The notes: generated from the sequence alone by a model not told the origin. Shown: positions 20,177 through 47,839, numbered from the stretch's first letter. The stretch is DNA of 64,000 bases from Candidatus Fermentibacterota bacterium (GCA_030592645.1 JAUVIR010000002.1:8065-72064); one strand, 5' to 3'. A program made the numbers and translations.

Positions 20177-20203
20177 ACTGTTCGATAACGATTCAAAGAT
20201 ATG

Positions 20204-20238
20204 AGGCTGCCGGGTAATCGGCAGCCTTATTTTTTTGG
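20204..20238 (+). terminator. Rho-independent terminator
   Basis: 9-bp GC stem AGGCTGCCG/CGGCAGCCT with a 6-nt loop, followed by TATTTTTTTGG. Confidence 0.6.
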
Positions 20239-20441
20239 TTCTTCAGAAGAATTTGTGCAGCTAAAGGTGTTGAAGTATATTCCATCATGTAATATATCAA
20301 CAAGATATGATCACGAAGGGGCCGTAATTGACAGTCTTGTCTTACTTGATAACAGTTACAGATAATCACTGTCTCGTATTGATGATCTCTTATCATTCGT
20401 GATGTCCAATATCTGCTTCCAGAGCGGAATCTATAACAGGA

Positions 20442-22531: not shown

Positions 22532-23845
22532 ATGGTCCTCCCGGTTCTCCAGGGGGGAGCAACTGGATACAGCGAGGTATCTTCAACGGACATACCTGCT
22601 TCTCTGGCAGCCAGCAGTGATATCCAGTACAGACCCGAACGTTTTCCAGGCAGGGGAGACATTAAAGAGCTTGTTGAGCGGATTCTCAGAAGCGAAGGAG
22701 TTCCCCGCGAGATAGGTGCGCTTGTCTGGATCGAAAGTGATTTCACTGTGGGTTGCTACTCCAGAGTTGGAGCCGCAGGCCCCTGGCAGCTGATGCCCAC
22801 AACAGGACGCGAACTTGGTTTAAAGATAGATGAATACATTGATGAACGATATTCCTGGGTTGCTTCCACAAGAGCAGCAGCTCGGTATCTCACACACCTG
22901 CACAACATATTCGATGACTGGTCTCTGGCGATTGCAGCATACAATTGCGGTCCGGGAAGGGTGCAGGCAGGACTTCGGCAGGGGGGCAGCACTTTCGGTG
23001 AAATTGATCTTCCAGGAGAAACGGACGCATTCGTCCCGCGGTTCGCTTCTGCCGCTGAGGCTTACGTTCAGGTAGAGCTTGATTCGGATAAGCTTGCTGT
23101 CGTCTGGATCCCTTCCGGTTTTGATCTTCGATTGCTTGCCGCTGAGACCAACCTTGATATAGATGTACTTATGGAGCTCAATAGATCGTACCTTGTGGAA
23201 AAAACACCGGCAGAGGGAGAAGCCTGGGAAATAGTCGTGCCTGCTGCATATGCCGGAGAAGTGTTCAATACTTCCTGGGCTATCGATCCTGAGAGGTACA
23301 TCGTGAAGGAGGGGGACAGCTGGAGCCGGATAGCTTCTGCGCTGGGCGTGTCATCGGAAGTTCTTATGGGACTGAATCCGGCAGGATCGCTTCAGCCGGG
23401 TATGTACATCGACATTCCGGAAAGCCAGCGCCAGCCAGTGAATGCTGGATACGTTGAAAACCCTCAGTTCATAAGGTATACCGTTCGCATGGGCGACACA
23501 CTGGGTGAGATCGCAGCAGGTGTAGGTGTGAGTTCAAGGGAAGTGGCCCTGTGGAACGAAATGTCACCTGGTGATACCATATTCCCAGGGGATGTCCTTC
23601 TGCTCCGCCGTTCCGGCAGTTCACAGGATCAGGAACAGAGCGAACCCAGACCCGCCCTTCCCGCTGGAGATGAAATAGATATAGTATCAGGTGGAGGAAG
23701 AGTTGAGCATACAGTTATTGAGGGAGATACACTCTGGGATCTGGCGATAAGATATGGGGTTTCCATAGAACAGATTATGTTCCTCAATTCGCTGGAGAAT
23801 AATGTACTCTCTTTAGGAAACATTCTTGTAATTATACCTGAGTAG
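22532..23845 (+). CDS. mltD: Membrane-bound lytic murein transglycosylase D-like protein (SLT domain plus three LysM repeats)
   Basis: SLT catalytic core (ESDFTV...AAGPWQLMPTTG) and LysM repeats (YIVKEGDSWSRIA, YTVRMGDTLGEIA, HTVIEGDTLWDLA). Confidence 0.75.
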   Translation: MVLPVLQGGATGYSEVSSTDIPASLAASSDIQYRPERFPGRGDIKELVERILRSEGVPREIGALVWIESDFTVGCYSRVGAAGPWQLMPTTGRELGLKIDEYIDERYSWVASTRAAARYLTHLHNIFDDWSLAIAAYNCGPGRVQAGLRQGGSTFGEIDLPGETDAFVPRFASAAEAYVQVELDSDKLAVVWIPSGFDLRLLAAETNLDIDVLMELNRSYLVEKTPAEGEAWEIVVPAAYAGEVFNTSWAIDPERYIVKEGDSWSRIASALGVSSEVLMGLNPAGSLQPGMYIDIPESQRQPVNAGYVENPQFIRYTVRMGDTLGEIAAGVGVSSREVALWNEMSPGDTIFPGDVLLLRRSGSSQDQEQSEPRPALPAGDEIDIVSGGGRVEHTVIEGDTLWDLAIRYGVSIEQIMFLNSLENNVLSLGNILVIIPE

Positions 23846-23849
23846 GTGA

Positions 23850-26800
23850 GTGAGAATAATGGCATTGTTTGAATCGGGATCCAGAAAGATACTGAAGAAG
23901 ATCAGAAAATTCGCCACTGAAGGCAGTGTAAACAGGGTTGCCTCTACAGTTAAAGAGGAAAAGAGTGTTCTCCTTGAAGAAAGCACTGTCGCATTGGAAC
24001 TGGTTGAACTCCTGCTTGACATAGGTCATCCGAATCTTGCTGCCAGTGTAGGCGAAGAAGTCATGCACCGTCACAGACAGATAGCTAAGGAAGTTCGGAA
24101 TCTTTTCATCGGCAGATTGAATGAATTCTCCAGATCCACAGACCTTTTGAGGGTGATCTGGAAAAGCTACATTGATATACATGATTACAGGGGCGCAATA
24201 AGTATTCTCCGTCAGGCTGATGAGATAACCGTTACAAGTCTTTTCGAAGTTATCAAAGAGAAAATGCATAGTTCAATGCGGTTTGATGGTACTGTTCACC
24301 CTGAAGCCGATCAGGACTCACTGGTCGAGTGGGGGTTGGCTCTGCATCGAGAGATCAGGTCGGGCGAGGCAATAGATTTTCTCTGGAAAGTGTGCAGGGA
24401 GGTTGAGTTTCCTCACCGTGATATATCCCTTCTGGCATTCTGGATGGGTAATCAGATAAAGAATCTGGACAGCAGCTACTTGATCTCACTTATGGGTATT
24501 GCAGCGGTCTCAGGTAAAATGGACAGGGCTCTGGAGTTTGCAAGCAAGCTGTCGGACAGTGAACCATCCCCCGATGAAGCTGTGGATGCCGCGAACGTTA
24601 TTGAAAAATGGATGGTACCTGCTGACCGTTCTGGTAAATCAGCATCATTTCTTGCCGAGATGTATACTGCAGCCGGTAAGACTGAGGCTGCATCAAAAAC
24701 TCTGGAGGGCATATACAGTCAAAGCCTGGACAGAGAGGAGCTGGAATCAGCAATTGAAGACCTTGTAGCCCATCCCGAAAGCGGCGCAGCTCCCCTTCTG
24801 CTTTCAGCCCAGATCAACCTGGAAAAGGGAAGAATTCCCGAAGCTTCAGAAGCTCTCGAGAGAGCATTTGAAGCGGGGGGTGCCGATAGCCGGAAACTGA
24901 TCGATATCTGCCGTGATATTCTTAACGAAACCGGTGACAATACAGGTACATTAGCAGTTAAACTCGCAAGTTACCTTGTTGAAAGCGGAGATATCAAGGA
25001 TGCTGTTTTTGCTTTACTTCCGATAATTGACGCGGATTCGGCGTTTGTTTTTGAACACGTGGAAAAGCTGATCATCAGAGACAGTAATAACTCTTACGTC
25101 CTTTCTTTGCTTGCCGCGGTACTCTTTGAAACGGGAAAGAGGAGTGAGGCTTCCGCCACTCTTCAGTATCTGTCAAAAAGAACGGAAAAAAAGTTCTGCA
25201 GCGAGGCAGCAGCTGTATTTGATGTACTGGAGAGTCAGATTGAAAAATATCCCGAGCTTAGAGAAGCAAGAGCCCTTTTCAGGTTTCATTCAGAGAGGGA
25301 GCAGGATGCAGCTGAAGACTGGTTCAAGCTTCTGCTTAAGGGTAGAAACCCTTCACAGGAAGGCCAGGAATTACTGAGGAAAGATAAAATTTCTGTTGGA
25401 TCAGTACAGCAGATCACAGATGCCGGTTTCAGCCCGAATACTCCATGGCAGGCGTTGGTGGTAGCACTGATCTGTTTGCGGGAGAGTAATATGGAGCATG
25501 TGGGCAAACACCTTGTCAGGGCGATGGAAACCCCTGAGCTTCAGGAAGTCGTTATCGACAGAATCGCAAAACTGCCGGATGATCTTCGCGATCAGCTTGA
25601 CCTGCAGTTGATATTCACGAAAATAACCCCCGGAAGGGCTGCTGAATCACTCGCATCGATTCTTGAGACGATTGAGGGAGGCGAAGACTGGAAGATCGCT
25701 CTTGCAACGGAACTCAAGTGGGATAATCCCGCAGAGGAGGCTCAATTCAAATTCAAGTATCTGCTTTCGCGGAACAGGGTTGTTCTTGCAGGATCATCCT
25801 ACATAGAAGGTAGTATTGGCGAACCTCTTATCGATTCTGTTGCACAGGCTTGCTCTGAAACGCTGAGGGACAGGTACAATGAGGCTCTGGATCTTCTTGC
25901 AAAACCTGTGAAAAGATCCTGGTCAAGCATACTGGCCAGAACCGTATTGGAATTCATACTGCCGAAAGCACCCGCTCTGGGTCTTCAGATCAGAAAGCTT
26001 ATCGCTGAATCATACAAGACTGAAAAAAGCTTCGGTGATGTGTCAGCCATATTGGCCCCTGTATTAAGTGAAGATGGCGTACTGGAATTACTTGAGAGTA
26101 TGGTCGAAGACCATCCTGGAGAGTACGACCTTCTGGATTCACTTACACGAACTGCCGCATCAAGGGGGGACTTTCAAAGATTTCATGAATATTCTGCCGT
26201 TATGCTCGATATTGATTCGGGCATAGCTGAAGAACTTGTAAATATGGCCCTTTCCATGGCAGCTGAAAGTGAGTCCGGCAGAGCATATCTATATGCCGCA
26301 AGATTAGCTTCCCGCTACAGGATCGATGCCGATACCGATGATCTGATCACGAAGGCAGTACTTATTCTTCCCGAGCTCTCTGAAGAAGGGATAGTCGAGG
26401 AGTTTCACAATAAGATAGGATCTGCTTCAGGAGCTTTATGCGCCGCAGCGTCTGGAAACGCATCTGCCTTCAGCAGTATCTGCAGAAATAATCCCGGCAT
26501 CAGCATTCCTCTGAATGAAACGATTATTGATATAGCTTCGCTTGACTGGACCCCCGAAGAGAATGCGGAAGCTCTTCTTGATCTGGCCGGACAGGCTCTA
26601 ACCGCTGGATTTCCACAGAAAGCGGAGAGTATACTGTGTGATCTTGCTTTGAAGAGCGATCCTCCATGGAATATAGAGGCGTCAAGGAAGATGCTCGCTG
26701 AGGTCGTAGCCGGAAAAGTAGACAGGATCAGATTCTGGGAATCAGTCAAAGCTGATGCTGTTGTTGCAGAAGCACTTGATAAACTCTTCCCCGAAGGATT

Positions 26801-27527
26801 CGGGAAAATAAGCACTGATGAGGCTAGAGTTATTGCCCCGGCAGTGCTCAACTCCGGTCAGGGAATCAGAAGACTGTTCAAGCTTGCGAATGATGAACTG
26901 TTCTTTCCTCCGGACGATCTTCCGCTCCGAAAGAAACTGGCTGAAACCTGCATGAGCAGCCTTGATGAAATGACGGATGAAGATACTCTTTCACCTGGTG
27001 AAACCGGAGAGCTACTGGAAATACTATTTTCGGCCGGCATGGTTGCCGATGCTGTTTCGGTTGCCAGACAGAACGGTTCGAACGAATTACTCTCCAGATT
27101 GAGAGATGGTCTGGCTGAAGCCAGAAAAGATTCAACAGGTGAGAGTAATGCTTTCAACATGGTTGTTTCCGGTAGATCCGATGAAGCCCTTAAAACTCTG
27201 GATGAGGCGGAAGATGAATCCTCCCGGGCTATGGATACCCGGGCTCTCGCTCTTTGGAATCTTGGATTCAGAGATCGGGCTATTTCAGCATGGATGAACG
27301 AATACAGAAGAACGGAAGACGCTGCTCCCCTGAAGAGGCTTTTCTGGGCTCTTGAACAGGCAGGTGCTCCCATGGAAAGAATAGCCCTGCGCAGATTCAT
27401 TGCCGGGAAATTTCCCGTACTTGCAGGAGTGCTTAAGCAGGAGGGTTCTGCCTACAAACCGGATCAGATGGAATTAATATCAGGACTTCGTATCGAGACG
27501 AAAACAAAGAAGGTGAAAAATGGCTGA
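23850..27527 (+). CDS. Large (1225 aa) predominantly alpha-helical protein of unknown function
   Basis: Long open frame with GTG start 5 nt after the mltD stop. No P-loop or catalytic motif recognised. Repeated LxxALxxxG helical-repeat-like segments. ATGGCTGA overlap with the next gene. Confidence 0.5.
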   Translation: MRIMALFESGSRKILKKIRKFATEGSVNRVASTVKEEKSVLLEESTVALELVELLLDIGHPNLAASVGEEVMHRHRQIAKEVRNLFIGRLNEFSRSTDLLRVIWKSYIDIHDYRGAISILRQADEITVTSLFEVIKEKMHSSMRFDGTVHPEADQDSLVEWGLALHREIRSGEAIDFLWKVCREVEFPHRDISLLAFWMGNQIKNLDSSYLISLMGIAAVSGKMDRALEFASKLSDSEPSPDEAVDAANVIEKWMVPADRSGKSASFLAEMYTAAGKTEAASKTLEGIYSQSLDREELESAIEDLVAHPESGAAPLLLSAQINLEKGRIPEASEALERAFEAGGADSRKLIDICRDILNETGDNTGTLAVKLASYLVESGDIKDAVFALLPIIDADSAFVFEHVEKLIIRDSNNSYVLSLLAAVLFETGKRSEASATLQYLSKRTEKKFCSEAAAVFDVLESQIEKYPELREARALFRFHSEREQDAAEDWFKLLLKGRNPSQEGQELLRKDKISVGSVQQITDAGFSPNTPWQALVVALICLRESNMEHVGKHLVRAMETPELQEVVIDRIAKLPDDLRDQLDLQLIFTKITPGRAAESLASILETIEGGEDWKIALATELKWDNPAEEAQFKFKYLLSRNRVVLAGSSYIEGSIGEPLIDSVAQACSETLRDRYNEALDLLAKPVKRSWSSILARTVLEFILPKAPALGLQIRKLIAESYKTEKSFGDVSAILAPVLSEDGVLELLESMVEDHPGEYDLLDSLTRTAASRGDFQRFHEYSAVMLDIDSGIAEELVNMALSMAAESESGRAYLYAARLASRYRIDADTDDLITKAVLILPELSEEGIVEEFHNKIGSASGALCAAASGNASAFSSICRNNPGISIPLNETIIDIASLDWTPEENAEALLDLAGQALTAGFPQKAESILCDLALKSDPPWNIEASRKMLAEVVAGKVDRIRFWESVKADAVVAEALDKLFPEGFGKISTDEARVIAPAVLNSGQGIRRLFKLANDELFFPPDDLPLRKKLAETCMSSLDEMTDEDTLSPGETGELLEILFSAGMVADAVSVARQNGSNELLSRLRDGLAEARKDSTGESNAFNMVVSGRSDEALKTLDEAEDESSRAMDTRALALWNLGFRDRAISAWMNEYRRTEDAAPLKRLFWALEQAGAPMERIALRRFIAGKFPVLAGVLKQEGSAYKPDQMELISGLRIETKTKKVKNG

Positions 27528-28605
27528 CAAACCGGAAGTTGAGAACACTGATAATACTATGGAGGAACTGATTACCGGGATCGGGAAACTTGTTTACAAG
27601 CTTAATGAATCCGTGGTGAACATTGATACTCGTATAGAAAAGCTTGAAACAGGAGTTTCATCTCTGCTCACGGAGAAGTTTGAAAGCCTGACAGCAGAGC
27701 TGGTAAAGTCCAACGAGTTCCTTGCCGGTATCCGGGAAGACCTCGGTACTGCACAGGAGAAACTTCTGCAGACTCTGGCTGCAGGACCTGAGGATTCCGT
27801 CAATAAGGAACTGTTCTCAAAGGAACTTAGTGAAGTGTCCCTTCTGATCACTGAGTCTGCTTCATCCATCGAGAAGACTGTTACCGAAGTGATTGGTCAA
27901 TCCAATGAGAACAGAGGGGTTATATTTTCGGAAAACATCAAGATCATCTCCGATGGAATGGGCGAAATAACATCGAAAATGGATCAGGCCAAAGACAGCA
28001 TACAGGAGAAGCTGGTGGAGGTACAAGCTTCAACAGCCAAGGAAGTAACATCAATATCAAGCAGCATCAAGGATAGCACCGATGCTCAGAAGGAGCAGCT
28101 AGAACAGATGAAGGGTCTACTGACACTGCATTCTGTTGAAGTTAAGGATAACAGGGTAAAAAATCTGAACCGTTCCGCAATAGTGCATTTTAACAATGCC
28201 GAGTTGGGTCAGGCCTGCTCGGATCTGAAAGAAGCTATTGAACTGAGTCCCGAGAGTTCCGAGCTGCTTGCGAACATGGCTCACATTGAGGCATCACAGG
28301 GGAAACTGAAGGAGGCGGAAGAACACTTCAGAAAAGCTCTCGAAATCGATCCCGAACTTGAGCCAGCCATCTCCGGTTTAGGAACAGTGCTCCTGGTAAC
28401 CGGAAGATCCGCTGATACAATCGATTTTCTTCAGAAATATCTGAATGAGGATTCTGAGGCATCTGCCGGCATTATGATTGCCTTGAGCAGAGCTTACGTT
28501 TCCCAGGGCGACCATGCAAAAGCTCTGGCAGTACTGGAGAAGGCAGATAAGATCGCTCCCGGACACCCTGAGCTGGAACAGGAACTTGCCAAATACAGGG
28601 ACTAG
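27520..28605 (+). CDS. Coiled-coil plus TPR-repeat protein (CpoB/YbgF-like architecture)
   Basis: N-terminal ~220 aa coiled coil and C-terminal three TPR units (AIELSPESSELLANMAHIEASQGKLKEAEEHFRKALEIDPE...). Translationally coupled to the upstream giant ORF. Confidence 0.45.
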   Translation: MADKPEVENTDNTMEELITGIGKLVYKLNESVVNIDTRIEKLETGVSSLLTEKFESLTAELVKSNEFLAGIREDLGTAQEKLLQTLAAGPEDSVNKELFSKELSEVSLLITESASSIEKTVTEVIGQSNENRGVIFSENIKIISDGMGEITSKMDQAKDSIQEKLVEVQASTAKEVTSISSSIKDSTDAQKEQLEQMKGLLTLHSVEVKDNRVKNLNRSAIVHFNNAELGQACSDLKEAIELSPESSELLANMAHIEASQGKLKEAEEHFRKALEIDPELEPAISGLGTVLLVTGRSADTIDFLQKYLNEDSEASAGIMIALSRAYVSQGDHAKALAVLEKADKIAPGHPELEQELAKYRD

Positions 28606-30808
28606 AGCATTTGTATTAATACCTGTAATCGCAGTGCTGCTCATCGGATGCAGGATACTTCAGCCGGATGAAAACCTCTCATGCCTGCAGAGAAGCATCC
28701 TCGCTGAAGCCAGCGGAGATTCCCTGCTTCGGGAAGGGCTGGAAGAGCAGGCCAGGGAAGCTTACATCAGGGCTGCTCTTTTAAGGTTACCAGATGACAG
28801 TCTGAGACTTGATCTTGCCTGGAAAGCTGCCGGATCTTCTGATACTCCCAGTATAATCACAGCCCAGCTGCTTCTCGAGAGACCGGATTCCCTTGCTTCT
28901 TACAGAGCAATCGAGCTTGGAGGTGCCGGGGTCGGCATGGAACTTCTTTCCAGCCTCTCCCAAAATGATTGCGTAATGCCGGAATACCTTCGGCTGGTAC
29001 TTGCCGACTCACTTATAGAGGCCGACCTGGCCGATCTTGCTTTGCGGGCACTCAGAGGAGTTCCGGGCGACCTCCCCGAACGGGCTCTGCGGAGCAGAAA
29101 CGTACTTTTCTACAGGGGATACCTGGAAACCGGTCAGCTCACTTCAGCGGATTCTCTTTTAAATGAAGCTGAACTTTCAAGCGGGGATGAACTGCTGTCG
29201 CTTCTGTATCATTACAGGGGTATCTGGATGCTGCAGAATGGTCATTCGGGATACAGAAGCATTCTTCTGCACTCCTTTGAACTATGGCCTGCCGCTCCGG
29301 TTCATGCTGATGCATTCGATGAAATAAGGATGGAATTGCTGAATGACAGAGATTTCGCCGCTTCGGTTGCTGATCCATTCTACAGTGGAGGTCTATGGAA
29401 CGAATTGTATGACATAGCCATTAATTCCGCTGATCCTGATCCTCAGCTTTGGTATCTTGCTGCTCGTACAAGGGATAGATTGGGTTTCTACGATGCAGCG
29501 GTCAGCATGCTTGATGAGTATCTTGTCAGATGGCCCGCCTCAGAGGGTGCAGCGAATGCGATGATCTATCTGGGGAGGGATCTTGGACGCTCTGGTAACT
29601 GGCAGAGGGGACTTGCGGTTCTGAAGCAGTACGGAGAGGTGTATCCGGAGCATTACAGGATAGGTAACCTCCCATGGTACATCGGTGATCTGCTGGTTGA
29701 GAACAGGCTCTGGCAGCAGGCTATCCCATGGTTCCGCATAACACTTGAACGTTACCCGAACAATGTTACTGCAGACGATGCCCATTTCTATCTCTGCTTC
29801 TCACTCCTCAAATCCGGAATGATTCCCGATGCTCTGAGCGAGCTGCAAACATTCATCTCCAGATGGTCAGGCAGTGTATACCTTTCATCCGCCAAGTACT
29901 GGCTTGGTAAACTCCTCCTGGCAGAGGGTAATCCTGCGGGCGCAGTTATACTTGAGAACCTGATCCAGTCTTTTCCCGCTAGCCTTCCGGCTTACTTTGC
30001 AAGAGAACTTCTGGGGCAACCGGCCTGGGAGCCTGAGTTCACCGAAGAACCCCTGGCTGAATGGATGGCGAGGCATGGACACGCTCCTTCCCCGCCGCCT
30101 GCAGCCGCGCTTAGAGGGTTGTTCCTTCAGGAGGCCGGTCTGAGGCATTTTGCAGATGGTGAGTTCCGGATGGCGGAAGAGATCGTCGGTGGACCCGACT
30201 ACCTTGCTCCTTTTTATCTCGAAAATGATGTATGGGAACGCAGACCGATATCGGGATACAATATGTGGAACCTCTCAGACAGTGACAGCGACAGGCCAAA
30301 GGAACTGTGGATGCTTCGCTACCAGATGGCATGGCCGGAGCTTGTTGTCCCGGCAGGTGAGAAATACGGATTGGATTCCCTCTTCGCATGGGCGATAATC
30401 AGGAACGAAAGCATGTTCCAGCCGACCTGCTACTCGGTTGCCGGTGCAAGAGGTCTTATTCAGATGATCCCGAGCACCTCTGAATATGTTGCGATTGAAC
30501 AGGGATGGAACGATTATTCTCCGGACAGGCTTTACGATCCTGCTGTTTCCATAGAATACGGGATCAGCTACATCTCGGGAGTTAACCGGGATTTAGGAGG
30601 AGACCCTGTGTTCACCGCAGCCGCATACAACGGGGGGCCGCATAACGCTGTTCACTGGGGTGCTGAGGATATGGAGCCGGACGAGTTCTTCTCGCTTATA
30701 ACTTACAATGAAACGAAAAGCTATACGCAGAATGTTCATCACGCTTATATGATCTATAAGGCGTTGTATCTGGGGCCGGGCGTCACTTCTGGTCACTTGC
30801 AAAGGTAA
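28514..30808 (+). CDS. slt: Soluble lytic transglycosylase Slt70-like (superhelical N-domain plus C-terminal SLT domain). Start uncertain.
   Basis: C-terminal SLT core (AWAIIRNESMFQP...GARGLIQMIPST, AAYNGGPHNA). Internal lipobox-like LLIGC about 40 aa into the called frame. The 3' end runs into palindromic element 30772-30833. Confidence 0.7.
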   Translation: MQKLWQYWRRQIRSLPDTLSWNRNLPNTGTRAFVLIPVIAVLLIGCRILQPDENLSCLQRSILAEASGDSLLREGLEEQAREAYIRAALLRLPDDSLRLDLAWKAAGSSDTPSIITAQLLLERPDSLASYRAIELGGAGVGMELLSSLSQNDCVMPEYLRLVLADSLIEADLADLALRALRGVPGDLPERALRSRNVLFYRGYLETGQLTSADSLLNEAELSSGDELLSLLYHYRGIWMLQNGHSGYRSILLHSFELWPAAPVHADAFDEIRMELLNDRDFAASVADPFYSGGLWNELYDIAINSADPDPQLWYLAARTRDRLGFYDAAVSMLDEYLVRWPASEGAANAMIYLGRDLGRSGNWQRGLAVLKQYGEVYPEHYRIGNLPWYIGDLLVENRLWQQAIPWFRITLERYPNNVTADDAHFYLCFSLLKSGMIPDALSELQTFISRWSGSVYLSSAKYWLGKLLLAEGNPAGAVILENLIQSFPASLPAYFARELLGQPAWEPEFTEEPLAEWMARHGHAPSPPPAAALRGLFLQEAGLRHFADGEFRMAEEIVGGPDYLAPFYLENDVWERRPISGYNMWNLSDSDSDRPKELWMLRYQMAWPELVVPAGEKYGLDSLFAWAIIRNESMFQPTCYSVAGARGLIQMIPSTSEYVAIEQGWNDYSPDRLYDPAVSIEYGISYISGVNRDLGGDPVFTAAAYNGGPHNAVHWGAEDMEPDEFFSLITYNETKSYTQNVHHAYMIYKALYLGPGVTSGHLQR

Positions 30809-30833
30809 GTGACCAGAAGTGACGCCCGGCCCC
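30772..30833. repeat. Palindromic element, copy 1: 27-bp perfect inverted repeat with 8-nt loop (GGGGCCGGGCGTCACTTCTGGTCACTT ... AAGTGACCAGAAGTGACGCCCGGCCCC)
   Basis: Read directly: arms 30772-30798 and 30807-30833 are exact reverse complements. Sits between the convergent slt-like and TolB-like genes. The slt stop codon lies in its loop/arm. Confidence 0.85.
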
Positions 30834-30838
30834 GAAGA

Positions 30839-31852
30839 TTAGATAAATTCTTCGGTAGTGAACACTCTCAGTACTTCACCATCCTGCACCAGCTCTATCC
30901 AGGCCAGGTATTTGCCATCCGGTGACAGGACAGGCTGAGTTGCCCATTCCCCCTGCCGGGATGCCTGAGTGAGATAATCGGATTCCCTGTTCATTATCCA
31001 TACCGTTGTTGGATCTTCCCATGAACGTCCGAAGTCCGCTACCGGGAAAGGATCTTTCCTGCAGAATGCCAGTAACTGTCCATCCAGAACAGCGGAAACC
31101 TGGCTTGCGTTATCCATGAATACTTTGTCGATGCCAGATTCAATGTTGAGAAATCTCAATTCCCAATCTCCCCATCCGCCTATCTGGAACAGAAGCACCC
31201 TGTCGGTTATCCACACAGGGTTGGATTCATGCCAGTCCCACCTGTAGAAAGTCGTATCGGCTCTGGCCCTTCTTCCCGAAGGCGCGGAGGCACCGATGAT
31301 ATACAGCTCCTCATACCAGGTTGGATTCATTGCAAAATTCATGCATGCGATATTAGTTCCATCAGGTGATATCACAGGAGCGTTGACCCTGGCTTCCGAA
31401 TACTCTGGGAGGAGAAGGAAGACATCATCAGAAAACAGACCTGTCACGAAAATATCACTGCCAAGGAACCGGGTAGTAAAACAGAGGACCGGATCACGGT
31501 AATGTCCCCGTGGATCGAATGTGCAGGCAACTGCTTCACCGATATGTAAAGGCTGCCTGCAGGTCTGAGGGTCGTCCGCCTGGAAGTAGCGCACAGTTCC
31601 GTCAAGAACGAAAGCGACCCAGGAGCCGTCGGGGGTAAACGCGGGAGAGGCCGCGTTGCCTTCTATAACGGTTATCTGCCCTTTCTCACGTGTCCATATA
31701 ACAAGCCTGTCATCAAGGGCTGCCACAAGCATATCTCCGGTCGGTGACCAGGCGAGATCGGGAGGGTAGTCGTCGTACCCGTTCCCGAACACATCCGGCA
31801 GAACGGTGAGGGTGGTCATAACAGCAACAATACACAGCATGCCTCTTATCAT
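30839..31852 (-). CDS. Periplasmic WD40-like beta-propeller (TolB-like PD40 repeat) protein
   Basis: Signal peptide (MIRGMLCIVAVMTTLTVLP) and repeated SPDG/TPDG PD40 motifs (AFTPDGSWVAF, VISPDGTNIAC, VLSPDGKYLAW). Start placed at MIRGM because the longer ORF N-terminus is encoded by palindromic element 2. Confidence 0.6.
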   Translation of the reverse strand: MIRGMLCIVAVMTTLTVLPDVFGNGYDDYPPDLAWSPTGDMLVAALDDRLVIWTREKGQITVIEGNAASPAFTPDGSWVAFVLDGTVRYFQADDPQTCRQPLHIGEAVACTFDPRGHYRDPVLCFTTRFLGSDIFVTGLFSDDVFLLLPEYSEARVNAPVISPDGTNIACMNFAMNPTWYEELYIIGASAPSGRRARADTTFYRWDWHESNPVWITDRVLLFQIGGWGDWELRFLNIESGIDKVFMDNASQVSAVLDGQLLAFCRKDPFPVADFGRSWEDPTTVWIMNRESDYLTQASRQGEWATQPVLSPDGKYLAWIELVQDGEVLRVFTTEEFI

Positions 31853-31882
31853 CAGCGTTCCTCTCTTCGGGGCAGTCTCTTC

Positions 31883-31943
31883 GGGGCCGGACGTCACTTG
31901 CGACACTTACGAAACGCAAGTGTCGCAAGTGACGTCCGGCCCC
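31883..31943. repeat. Palindromic element, copy 2: 26-bp perfect inverted repeat with 9-nt loop (GGGGCCGGACGTCACTTGCGACACTT ... AAGTGTCGCAAGTGACGTCCGGCCCC)
   Basis: Arms 31883-31908 and 31918-31943 are exact reverse complements. Shares GGGGCCGG(G/A)CGTCACTT with copy 1. Preceded by an 11-bp direct repeat TCTCTTCGGGG x2 (31862-31886). Confidence 0.85.
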
Positions 31944-31953
31944 ATCTATATAG

Positions 31954-32602
31954 GTGGAGATTCATATGCTGTCAACGGTTGACAAATTATGTAAACAATT
32001 GATAATATGGGAGTTACAGAAGTGTCAATTTAAGGCGGGAGATTATATGAGAAGAGAAACCCTGGAATACCTTGTATGCCCTGAATGCAAATCAGAACTG
32101 GAAGCAGAAATTGTCAGTAGCTGGAAAGGTGATATCCGATCAGGTCTTCCTCAATACAGGATTGGAGCAGACACTGTCTGTTGAACGGGATCTGAAATGT
32201 CTCGGGAATATTCAGTACCGTTTCAGGTATGCGGGCCGAAGCCGAACTTCTGAAGCGGTTGGCGGTGATGTTAAACGGCTTCCGATAAAAACAGAGTGTA
32301 TTGATACCGTCATGATGCTCAATGCCCTTTCTGAAATTAACGGCATTTCAGTTATGCTGAAAGAAGCGTATCGTGCACTAAAGGAGGGAGGGCATTTCAT
32401 CATAAAGGTTTCAGAGCTTCCGTTTACCGGAGATTTGATTTCTCTGTCTGAGTTTGTACGGTTTGCCGAGGGAATTGATCAATACTCCGGATATGAGAGA
32501 TTTCAATCGGATGCGGAAGAAAGAGGTTTTATCATTCTCAAGTCAGAAAGATTAGTGGAGAAAACCGGGAAGTATTCCCGGCTGATCTCATTCAGAAAGT
32601 GA
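31954..32602 (+). pseudogene. Probable degraded SAM-dependent methyltransferase: Trm112-like zinc-ribbon fragment (31954-32184) plus out-of-frame methyltransferase C-terminal fragment (32072-32602)
   Basis: Frame-1 ORF carries the LEYLVCPECKSELE zinc ribbon. Overlapping frame-2 ORF carries post-motif-I methyltransferase segments (DTVMMLNALSEI, LKEGGHFII) but no GxGxG motif I. The two halves are in different frames. Confidence 0.35.
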
Positions 32603-44661: not shown

Positions 44662-44735
44662 GGGGCCGGGCCTAACATCTAAACATTCATTACCAGTTTA
44701 TCAAAAAGAAATGTTTAGATGTTAGGCCCGGCCCC
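44662..44735. repeat. Palindromic element, copy 3: 26-bp perfect inverted repeat with 22-nt loop (GGGGCCGGGCCTAACATCTAAACATT ... AATGTTTAGATGTTAGGCCCGGCCCC)
   Basis: Arms 44662-44687 and 44710-44735 are exact reverse complements. Same GGGGCCGGGC base as copies 1 and 2. Lies in the 124-bp gap between the NuoI-like gene and hycI. Confidence 0.85.
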
Positions 44736-46839: not shown

Positions 46840-47163
46840 CTAACGTAACAATCTACGTTCCAGAAGATCCTGAAGGTCTCTTCTTCCGTCAAGAACACAA
46901 TGAACGAATACCTTCTTACCTTCGATCTCGTAAATTACGCGATAAGGTTTGAAATGGAGTTCCAGATAGTTACTGACACTGATCCGCCTTAGTTCTGGAG
47001 GGATGTGACCACGTTCTGGAAGCTGATCGAGGGTATTACAGATTTCTTCAAGTTTGCCAAGGACGTAGTCTGCCTTGCGATCAGAATCATGTTCAAGAAT
47101 ATAGCGATAGATATCAAAAAGATCTTCTTGGACGTCGTGAATGATAATTACCTGATATGTCAC
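46840..47163 (-). CDS. parE: Type II toxin, RelE/ParE family
   Basis: 107 aa. ParE-like pattern (...SNYLELHFKPYRVIYEIEGKKVFVHCVLDGRRD). 4-bp overlap with the upstream antitoxin gene. Confidence 0.75.
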   Translation of the reverse strand: MTYQVIIIHDVQEDLFDIYRYILEHDSDRKADYVLGKLEEICNTLDQLPERGHIPPELRRISVSNYLELHFKPYRVIYEIEGKKVFVHCVLDGRRDLQDLLERRLLR

Positions 47164-47447
47164 TTGAGATTCTTGATTCGAGAACGAATACTATTAAAGG
47201 ATTGCTTTGCAGTCCTGTAGTTTCCTTCTCGTTTACTTTTTGAACTCTGGGCCAGCATTTTCAATAGTGCCAGACTTTCCTGTGTCTGCTCATATGATTC
47301 CAGATCCTGAACAATCACCTTCGCCTCGCCGTTCTGGGTTATAATAAAAGTCTTGTGTTCATCTGAAATTTCACGCAGCAATTCAGATGCATGTGCTTTC
47401 AAATAACTGATTGATTTAACAGAATCACTCAATTTCATGACAATCAC
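47160..47447 (-). CDS. Type II antitoxin, Phd/YefM family
   Basis: KTFIITQNGEAKVIVQDLESYEQTQESLALLK is the classic Phd/YefM core. True start is probably MKLSD at 47438. Confidence 0.7.
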   Translation of the reverse strand: MIVMKLSDSVKSISYLKAHASELLREISDEHKTFIITQNGEAKVIVQDLESYEQTQESLALLKMLAQSSKSKREGNYRTAKQSFNSIRSRIKNLK

Positions 47448-47647: not shown

Positions 47648-47839
47648 GTGAATCTTCAGGTATTTGACCTATCCGGGAGACTTATTTCTGAGCTTGATGC
47701 TGTTTCCTGTGAAGGGAAGGCTGTATTTCATTGGAATGGAGAAACATCTTCAGGAGTTGAACTCCCGTCAGGTATCTATACAGCAAGGCTATATTCGGGG
47801 CGTACAGTTATCACCGCAACGCTGTTAAAGCTTGAGTAG
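47648..47839 (+). pseudogene. Remnant of a T9SS/FlgD-Ig-type C-terminal sorting domain (63 aa, no upstream coding body)
   Basis: NLQVFDLSGRLISELDAV...LPSGIYTARLYSGRTVITATLLKLE closely parallels the C-terminal domain of the protein at 20442-21347. In-frame stops lie immediately upstream. Confidence 0.45.

Follow-up and report, generated by a model that had tools for sequence, protein, structure and literature searches.

Palindromic repeats dispersed between genes have been described in several groups of bacteria. The closest described systems are the REP, BIME and REPIN elements of Enterobacteria and Pseudomonas, which are mobilized by RAYT Y1 transposases, the ERIC/IRU elements of enterobacteria, the RUP and BOX elements of pneumococcus, and miniature inverted-repeat transposable elements (MITEs) such as the Correia elements of Neisseria, which modify the ends of transcripts and can bring in promoters or terminators. 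In E. coli, REP 3′ stem-loops block 3′ exonucleases and may also help termination. Here, a stretch of 64,000 nucleotides from a Candidatus Fermentibacterota bacterium (GCA_030592645.1, JAUVIR010000002.1:8065-72064) was analyzed. This stretch, at its full length, is referred to as the window, and it contains a gene for a PD40-repeat beta-propeller protein that is bracketed by two related hairpin-forming palindromes, c1 and c2. To our knowledge, the Fermentibacterota are a candidate phylum with no cultured members. The two hairpins belong to a previously undescribed, lineage-specific family of dispersed extragenic palindromes in this phylum. The whole locus is read, with a probability of roughly 0.7, as an old native junction in Ca. 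Aegiribacteria at which the PD40 gene is the resident, which copies of the family have colonized, and where c1 and c2 would act on the ends of the mRNA.

Two related palindromes at the PD40 locus

The features concerned are the following.
30772..30833, no strand: hairpin c1, a 62-bp palindrome with 27-bp perfect arms and an 8-nt loop, GCAAAGGT
31883..31943, no strand: hairpin c2, a 61-bp palindrome with 29-bp arms containing one mismatch and a 3-nt loop
30839..31852, minus strand: PD40-repeat beta-propeller gene, 337 amino acids with a signal peptide, lineage-restricted and syntenic in all relatives
28514..30808, plus strand: TPR + SLT lytic transglycosylase gene, with the last 12 codons (GPGVTSGHLQR) and the TAA stop coming from hairpin c1

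Hairpin c1, a member of the GGGGCCGGRC-based family, was placed between the convergent SLT (plus-strand) and PD40 (minus-strand) genes, with a gap of 5 nt (GAAGA) to the TAA stop of the latter. Hairpin c2 occupies part of the PD40 5′ leader, with 30 nt between it and the ATG start at 31852-31850. Both hairpins open with the core GGGGCCGGRCGTCACTT, which they have in common in four occurrences, one per arm. The core pattern was matched 6 times in the window, compared with 0.14 matches expected by chance, and none of 100 shuffles reached 6. The predicted RNA stability of the hairpins was −63 to −69 kcal/mol (z = −10 to −14 against shuffles), and the arms each hold two 7-mers spaced 10 bp apart (e.g., GTCACTT ctg GTCACTT). 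A previous reading of this DNA, made from the sequence alone (the sequence-only reading), had reported the core shared by the two hairpins, the position of c1 5 bp past the stop and that of c2 about 30 bp upstream of the start. These coordinates agreed with ours, and all of its sequence-level statements on the hairpins held when positions 30600-32100 were reread and scanned for repeats. Its statement that the PD40 gene is the only minus-strand gene of the stretch is true between 22.5 and 46.8 kb. A third family member in the window, c3, had been overlooked.

The SLT reading frame runs 12 codons into the c1 stem, without meeting an earlier stop, and ends at the TAA in the c1 loop. The native ends of this protein are YKALYE in the relative L001 and YKALYLR in L003, and c1 has evidently overwritten the native SLT stop codon. 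Both flanking reading frames had been credited with spurious “VTSG” extensions. Both extensions exist, and the N-terminal one on the PD40 frame, from a GTG at 31906, is indeed spurious, but the C-terminal one on the SLT frame is real insofar as no stop precedes the TAA in the c1 loop. The PD40 frame itself begins with an ATG and a signal-peptide-like N terminus. Its product matched only PD40/WD40 repeats, and its neighbors are SLT, TPR and LysM genes rather than tolQRA-pal. Because the N-terminal TolB domain (TolB_N) is absent, the protein is a PD40 propeller and not TolB; of the former label “TolB-like beta-propeller,” only the propeller was retained.

A dispersed family of palindromes

The third hairpin lies outside the PD40 locus.
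44662..44735, no strand: hairpin c3, 74 bp, with arms GGGGCCGGRCCTAACATCTAAACATT and a conserved 22-nt loop

A palindromic pattern taken from c1 to c3 was found at 11 loci among 185,579 species genomes and at 16 metagenome contigs or loci, with no match in the viral, plasmid and phage collections. At least eight of the genome loci are in metagenome-assembled genomes (MAGs) named Fermentibacteria or Aegiribacteria, two are in one further MAG, and one is in an Acidobacteriota MAG. As the scan pattern demands GGGGCCGG, subfamilies starting with GGGACCGG or GGGTCGG were seen only at the PD40 locus. Other subfamilies have the patterns GGGTCGGAC..., GGGACCGGAC... and GGGGTCGG.... In Fermentibacterota the family occupies about ten distinct loci, with relatives in Acidobacteriota-like contigs. 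About ten loci carry family hairpins without a PD40 gene, and after removal of orthologous groups the flanking genes were unrelated housekeeping genes (PFK, glycosyltransferase, methyltransferase, esterase and cupin). A copy in L017 is identical to c1 at 62/62 positions and sits at an unrelated locus with unrelated flanks.

The elements range from 55 to 93 bp. When 27 of them were compared, the outermost 8 bp of the stem were near-invariant (GGGGCCGG), mostly followed by RC. At 13 of the first 22 stem positions, at least two types of Watson-Crick pair were observed with almost no mismatches, and most of positions 9 to 22 vary from one subfamily to another, the two arms in step. The subfamilies have homologous loops. 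The most widespread is that of c3, whose 26-nt arms and homologous 22-nt loop recur at about seven distinct loci. A further set of hairpins (L012, L023-L025, L029-L031 and L034-L036) opens with the same 12 nt, GGGGCCGGGCGT, and has inner arms AATTTCCTG. Their carriers are GC-rich (63 to 68%) soil contigs and the Acidobacteriota MAG; the palindromic flanks of these hairpins are often extended (GAAAGTC...GACTTTC), and some show a duplication at the junction of stem and flank.

Searches of Rfam gave only sub-threshold matches to generic microRNA hairpins and no known RNA family. A literature search brought up neither a description of repeats from Fermentibacteria, Aegiribacteria or Hyd24-12 nor one of a palindrome family built on GGGGCCGG. 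Apart from the three hairpins, the window has no excess of solitary CGGCCCC (10 found, 6.5 expected), and the one near 20318 looks like chance.

Of 21 further elements, nearly all overlap a stop codon or follow one by 2 to 31 nt, and at least 7 are between convergent genes. Since most elements sit just past stop codons, c1 is a typical member of the family and c2, in a 5′ leader, an atypical one.

Synteny and composition of the PD40 gene

Homologues of the PD40 protein are few (27 matches), and the named ones belong to Ca. Aegiribacteria or Fermentibacteraceae. Orthologous loci were taken from more distant members of the PD40 protein cluster, giving nine relatives. Amino acid identity of the PD40 protein to that of the window was 91% in L001, 85% in L002, 83% in L007, 80% in both L008 and L009, 66% in L003, 59% in L004 and L005, and 55% in L006. 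In 9/9 relatives the gene has the same position and orientation, convergent with the TPR + SLT gene and divergent from the Fer4_22/hydrogenase operon. In L003 and L009, an intact Trm112-methyltransferase gene stands between the PD40 gene and the hydrogenase operon. The GC content of the PD40 gene (0.520), its GC content at third codon positions (0.547) and its codon-usage distance are equal to those of the adjacent SLT gene and inside the spread of the window. The window itself is core chromosome, with dnaK, dnaJ, mutS2, dnaG, a sigma-70 gene, asd, an Mbh-type hydrogenase and hyp genes, and no integrase or transposase was present among its 48 open reading frames (ORFs) scanned. The synteny in nine relatives, together with the native composition, indicates that the PD40 gene is an old, vertically inherited resident of this site.

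Hairpin variation at the PD40 locus

The hairpins, in contrast to the gene, vary between relatives. At the upstream site, c2 is identical in the window and L001, while L002 has c1-type arms, L007 a variant of c2 and L021 a decayed c2; L008, L009, L003, L004 and L006 have no hairpin there. At the downstream site, c1-type hairpins are found in the window, L008 and L021. In L001 and L007 the site is occupied by a different family member (GGGTCGGACATAACATCGTGCACTT...), and in L002 by a third type (GGGACCGGACTTCATTT...) beside a c1 remnant (CGCCCGGCCCC) that still touches the original flank. L009 has a half-degenerate copy, L004 another hairpin type (GGGGTCGTAGC...) and L006 a short, unrelated hairpin; in L003 there is none, and the PD40 and SLT genes overlap by 8 nt. 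Some hairpin is present at the convergent SLT/PD40 junction in 8/9 relatives, the unrelated ones in L004 and L006 included. In three relatives (L001, L002 and L007) both sides have an intact hairpin, in a fourth the upstream one is decayed, three retain the downstream hairpin alone, one has a degenerate remnant and one has no hairpin. Hairpin presence and type are discordant with the PD40 tree.

Hairpin c2 is a close relative of c1 and, because L002 has c1-type arms at the upstream site, was most likely copied locally from this downstream element. Such local copying would account for two related copies bracketing one gene in an otherwise sparse family.

In L003 (11000-11029), the PD40 coding sequence holds GGGGCCGGGGG 15 nt before its stop, so that ..VSGPGEFI replaces ..VFTTEEFI at the C terminus; this may be a relic of an absorbed element, or chance.

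Turnover and junction duplications

Presence or absence of an element at an otherwise unchanged site was observed for c3. It lies between two plus-strand genes of the hydrogenase operon, 16 nt past the stop of the Fe-S protein gene and upstream of hycI. The orthologous site contains the element in L016, whereas L037 and L038 have identical flanks with only GGGCTCGGCCCC in place (9939-10000 in L037). L039 (9864-10000) has the element too, and its loop holds a second one. Since the more distant L039 has the element, the GGGCTCGGCCCC state in L037 and L038 represents a near-precise loss. The right arm of the nested hairpin in L039 also makes a false hycI start codon. Nesting of one element inside the loop of another occurred in two independent cases (L022 and L039), and further signs of turnover are the c1 remnant beside a new hairpin in L002, the half-degenerate copy in L009 and the decayed c2 in L021. 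No target-site duplication flanked any of 31 elements. Tn3-type ends, suggested by inverted repeats starting with GGGG, were rejected because no 5-bp duplication was found.

A different kind of duplication is characteristic of the family, and one lies beside c2.
31862..31889, minus strand: tandem junction duplication with units CGGCCCCGAAGAGA / CTGCCCCGAAGAGA on the gene strand

The direct repeat TCTCTTCGGGG, which occurs at 31862-31872 and 31876-31886, is better read as part of a 14-nt tandem duplication (31862-31875 and 31876-31889) with 13/14 positions identical. Its unit is composed of 7 nt of the hairpin stem base and 7 nt of flank. L001 shares the duplication, with a G-to-T difference carried by both units. 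Tandem Repeats Finder does not list it, as two copies are too short. The duplication shifts the distance from the stem to the ribosome-binding site from 16 to 30 nt, and it may have been kept for this gain in spacing, which is speculation.

One-sided tandem duplications of this form, joining 4 to 8 nt of stem base to 5 to 9 nt of flank with a period of 10 to 17 nt, were found on 11/62 element sides, compared with 0.13% of random junctions, and about a third of family members carry one. They lie on the side facing the nearest gene end. At orthologous sites they differ between lineages: the PD40 3′ junction has none in the window, 12 nt in L008 and 13 nt in L021, and the PFK locus has none in L026, 16 nt in L020 and 13 nt in L028. 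Hence, the duplications arise repeatedly in place. The 11-bp direct repeat overlapping the base of c2 had been called an insertion scar. The repeat is there and is a true hallmark of the family, but it belongs to a one-sided tandem duplication of this recurring kind and not to a target-site duplication. Strand slippage was considered as the source from the sequences, and no supporting microhomology was seen. In L007 (8452-8570) such a duplication exists on a larger scale: past the downstream hairpin, its loop and right arm are repeated in tandem together with 8 nt of flank.

These observations would fit elements that spread and turn over through a probably trans-acting mechanism that leaves no target-site duplication. 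An all-against-all comparison of element-adjacent ORFs gave no recurring candidate for a mobilizing protein, the only recurrences being orthologous loci. It is conceivable, though doubtful, that the GGGGCCGGRC palindromes are active non-autonomous mobile elements that move by a mechanism undescribed for bacterial repeats. Such a mechanism would combine the lack of target-site duplication with near-precise excision, repeated one-sided duplication of 4 to 8 nt of stem base and 5 to 9 nt of flank, and preferred landing in or beside existing hairpins, as in the two loop nestings and the one replacement beside a remnant. If this were true, the near-identical 12-nt stem base (GGGGCCGGGCGT) of Fermentibacterota and Acidobacteriota-like soil bacteria would be a sign that one conserved nuclease or transposase, acting in trans in both phyla, recognizes it.

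Predicted promoters and transcript ends

The following features were assigned upstream of the PD40 gene.
31947..31975, minus strand: inferred PD40 promoter, with TTGACA (31975-31970), a 17-nt spacer and TATATA (31952-31947)
31859..31866, minus strand: ribosome-binding site of the PD40 gene, AGAGAGGAA region, unpaired in the predicted leader fold
31979..32006, plus strand: divergent methyltransferase-gene promoter, with TTGACA, 16 nt and GATAAT, back to back with the PD40 promoter

When five genomes with or without a hairpin were aligned, CGTTGACAG and CTATATA were invariant and separated by a 17-nt spacer of variable sequence. As c2 begins 3 nt past the −10 box of this predicted promoter, transcription is expected to start in the first few G's of the c2 stem. 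The PD40 mRNA would then begin with a fully paired 5′-terminal stem of about 25 to 29 bp, probably the 29-bp stem of c2, with the ribosome-binding site left open in the predicted fold. By analogy with the 5′ stem-loops that stabilize ompA, the c2 stem would be expected to protect the PD40 message. At 31970-31984, the two divergent promoters have their −35 boxes arranged as a palindrome, TGTCAACGGTTGACA. Its TTGACA half facing the PD40 gene was invariant in the five genomes, and the other half was the same in four, with two bases differing in L008; the palindrome could be an operator too.

At the other end of the gene, c1 would provide an RNA 3′-end structure serving both convergent transcripts. 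On the model of the E. coli REP 3′ stem-loop, it would hold back 3′ exonucleases and might also terminate transcription without the help of a U-tract. A U-tract or T-run is absent on both strands of c1 and c2, and neither these nor c3 were scored as a terminator stem with a T-run behind it, the single call of the terminator scan at c1 being a 7-bp sub-stem with a T-poor tail inside the hairpin. A canonical intrinsic terminator, with a GC-rich stem of approximately 14 to 19 bp followed by a T7 run, was found in the window at 20194-20237; the organism therefore uses ordinary terminators besides the large hairpins that lack T-runs. Hairpin c2, and c1 as well, may also stop read-through from the plus-strand SLT operon, which would otherwise run antisense across the PD40 gene into the hydrogenase operon. 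Transcriptional insulation of the PD40 gene by its hairpins, as proposed in the sequence-only reading, is a plausible prediction, with c1 placed where convergent genes would call for a 3′-end structure acting both ways and c2 separating the conserved promoter from the ribosome-binding site.

Alternative explanations

The sequence-only reading had offered, as one of two possibilities, that the gene was delivered as a unit. The PD40 gene and both hairpins would then be a mobile or cassette-like unit brought into the site, for example an integron-type cassette or a composite element. The arrangement invites this, as related palindromes bracket a single, oppositely oriented gene with a repeat at one junction, and hairpins on both sides recur in L001, L002 and L007. 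However, the synteny data refute it: the gene is at the same site in all nine relatives, including L003, which has no hairpins, and L008, L004 and L006, which have only the downstream one. Both of the observations that the sequence-only reading itself had named as arguments against a cassette were made, the gene without hairpins and hairpins without the gene (at about ten other loci), and the parts do not travel as one block. The GC content and codon usage are native, like those of the SLT neighbor, rather than foreign; the gene has its own conserved promoter that predates the hairpin; no integrase or transposase is encoded by the scanned window ORFs; and c1 and c2 have neither GTTRRRY/RYYYAAC cores nor bulged bases. 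The cassette reading is accordingly given almost no credence, and with nothing at the PD40 locus being a gene cassette, a false lead is removed. That the palindromes are ordinary terminators that evolved locally and are alike by convergence is also very improbable. Terminator sequences are known for quick turnover, the hairpins are placed at 3′ ends, often between convergent genes, and in L006 the junction is occupied by a short, unrelated hairpin. This reading is contradicted by the identical or near-identical copies at non-orthologous loci, namely the 62/62 identical c1 copy and the c3 subfamily with its shared 26-nt arms and 22-nt loop at about seven loci. In addition, the hairpins lack the T-run that a canonical terminator of the same window has, c2 is at no gene's 3′ end and is not downstream of any gene, and elements nest.

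Whether the hairpins matter to expression is a separate question. They could be selfish or neutral palindromes tolerated at transcript ends, with no meaningful effect on the PD40, SLT or hydrogenase genes, in keeping with their gain and loss among close relatives while gene order is unchanged, the decay of c2 in L021 and of the c1/T-type copy in L009, and the tolerance of the SLT protein for a hairpin-encoded 12-residue tail; the post-stop positions could likewise reflect harmless insertion sites. This was judged unlikely, since a hairpin at the SLT/PD40 junction in 8/9 relatives suggests that a structure is needed there, the stems stay perfect through many compensated changes, and a −63 kcal/mol stem at the extreme 5′ end of an mRNA is unlikely to be without effect. 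A role as double-stranded DNA binding sites, through which a regulator or nucleoid protein would co-regulate the PD40 gene with other genes, could draw on the 10-bp periodic direct repeat within the arms, the conserved stem base and the overlap of c2 with the stretch that immediately follows the −10 box, a frequent place of repressor binding. It appears improbable, because the inner arms with the 7-mers differ between subfamilies and only the stem base is conserved, most copies are past stop codons and not at promoters, and an arm complementarity of 26 to 29 bp far exceeds the needs of a protein site.

Several points weigh against the preferred reading, that dispersed palindromes colonized a native junction and act on mRNA ends. 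The relatives with intact hairpins on both sides, L001, L002 and L007, were all assembled from a single metagenome sample, and recombination between co-resident strains or assembly chimerism may explain some of the apparent hairpin swaps. Hairpin-free relatives have an unrelated PD40 leader of about 90 nt with which the sequence downstream of c2 cannot be aligned, and c2 is for this reason a leader replacement and not a clean insertion. The arm consensus is partly imposed by the search pattern at positions 12 to 17. Copy number appears modest, with 3 copies in the 64-kb window, 1 to 2 strict matches per MAG and no further copies in about 150 kb of PD40-locus flanks, and the two copies within 1.1 kb are a real local enrichment that is explained only by local copying. 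Neither the 48 scanned window ORFs nor the element-adjacent ORFs include a transposase or other mobilizing enzyme. The −10 box TATATA matches the consensus at 4/6 positions and was missed by the consensus promoter scan, which requires a T at position 6. Finally, transcription start, termination and stabilizing effects are all deduced from sequence. As to copy number, several matches of the genome scan are no more than a few hundred bases from the end of a contig or locus. This placement suggests that the repeats break MAG assemblies, and fragmentation of MAGs at repeats probably hides further copies.

Neighboring features

The gene divergent from the PD40 gene is decayed in the window.
32047..32602, plus strand: remnant of a Trm112-Zn-ribbon/Methyltransf_11 gene with an internal deletion of about 145 codons and a frameshift, the divergent neighbor of the PD40 gene

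This pseudogene keeps residues 1-33 and 178-339 of the 340-amino-acid orthologue (L009 and L003), in two frames. The Trm112-methyltransferase gene is also decayed or lost in L001, L002, L007, L008 and L021. On the other side, a conserved, envelope-related block at 22532-30808 that contains a LysM + SLT gene, genes for TPR proteins of 1225 and 361 amino acids, and the TPR + SLT gene is found upstream of the PD40 gene in all relatives. The retention of this block suggests that the propeller protein works with peptidoglycan-remodeling proteins. Beyond c3, ORFs resembling a RelE/ParE toxin (46840-47447, minus strand) and a Phd/YefM antitoxin (47648-47839, plus strand) were recognized by eye, together with a fragment like a T9SS C-terminal sorting domain. 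This region occupies the site of pyruvate formate-lyase and its activase in L037 and L039.

Significance and comparison with known systems

The new repeat family adds to what is recorded for a candidate phylum, and its main practical value lies in the annotation and assembly of Fermentibacterota MAGs. The repeats mislead annotation by creating false start codons (L039 and L009) and N-terminal extensions that are not real, and they also give ORFs C-terminal tails that are real. In these organisms they probably also have a part in forming the ends of mRNAs. Only two traits, the one-sided junction duplications and the stem base found across phyla, might yield a new mechanism.

Among known systems, integron attC sites resemble the locus in that a single gene is bounded by imperfect palindromes, and the c3 subfamily holds GCCTAAC...GTTAGGC. 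In c3, however, this motif is enclosed by a conserved GGGGCCGG stem base, which would itself fall outside the recombination point. As the would-be R boxes do not include the conserved part, and bulged bases and an unpaired spacer are lacking, c3 was rejected as an attC site on architecture. Integron cassettes differ further, as the PD40 gene has its own promoter, a position fixed across relatives and housekeeping neighbors, with no array and no integrase found. Intrinsic terminators share the stem with c1 and c2, which lack the U-tract. The likeness of c2 to 5′ stabilizing stem-loops (E. coli ompA; B. subtilis aprE/ermC), drawn from the promoter position, is that it would pair the first nucleotides of the PD40 mRNA and leave the ribosome-binding site free; its stem is far longer and repeat-derived. 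Rickettsia palindromic elements join ORFs, as c1 does in giving the SLT gene its last 12 codons and stop, but they insert in frame inside genes, whereas the present elements are mostly intergenic and c1 changes no more of its gene than the very 3′ end.

MITEs share with the family a small, non-autonomous form, terminal inverted repeats and an influence on transcript ends. They differ in their fixed-length target-site duplications, in place of which the 31 elements examined show one-sided duplications of 10 to 17 nt, and the element here is palindromic as a whole. No autonomous parent element with the same inverted repeats was seen in the fetched loci or in the plasmid, phage or viral collections. 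ERIC/IRU and RUP/BOX are likewise palindromes, imperfect to perfect and about 60 to 130 bp long, in transcribed intergenic regions; a given site may have one in some species and lack it in close relatives, and they occur in 5′ leaders as well as at 3′ ends. There is no sequence relationship to them, and the present elements are shorter and are clamped by GC pairs much more strongly at the stem base.

The REP/BIME/REPIN elements are similar in several respects: they are dispersed, non-coding, extragenic palindromes without target-site duplication, located past stop codons or between convergent genes, with lineage-specific subfamilies, presence/absence polymorphism at orthologous sites, and 3′ stem-loops expected to protect the upstream mRNA. 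REPs, however, are imperfect, 20 to 40 nt long, often in doublets and present in tens to hundreds of copies per genome, whereas the family here has a single long near-perfect stem of 26 to 30 bp and an apparently low copy number. Its stem starts with GGGGCCGG (GGGGCCGGRC) rather than a GTAG-type head, and neither arm is a palindrome by itself. The scanned window ORFs and the ORFs beside other copies include no RAYT gene, no whole genome having been searched, and we know of no one-sided tandem duplication of stem base and flank as a feature of REPs. The palindromes described here form a new family of dispersed extragenic palindromic repeats that is REP/ERIC-like.

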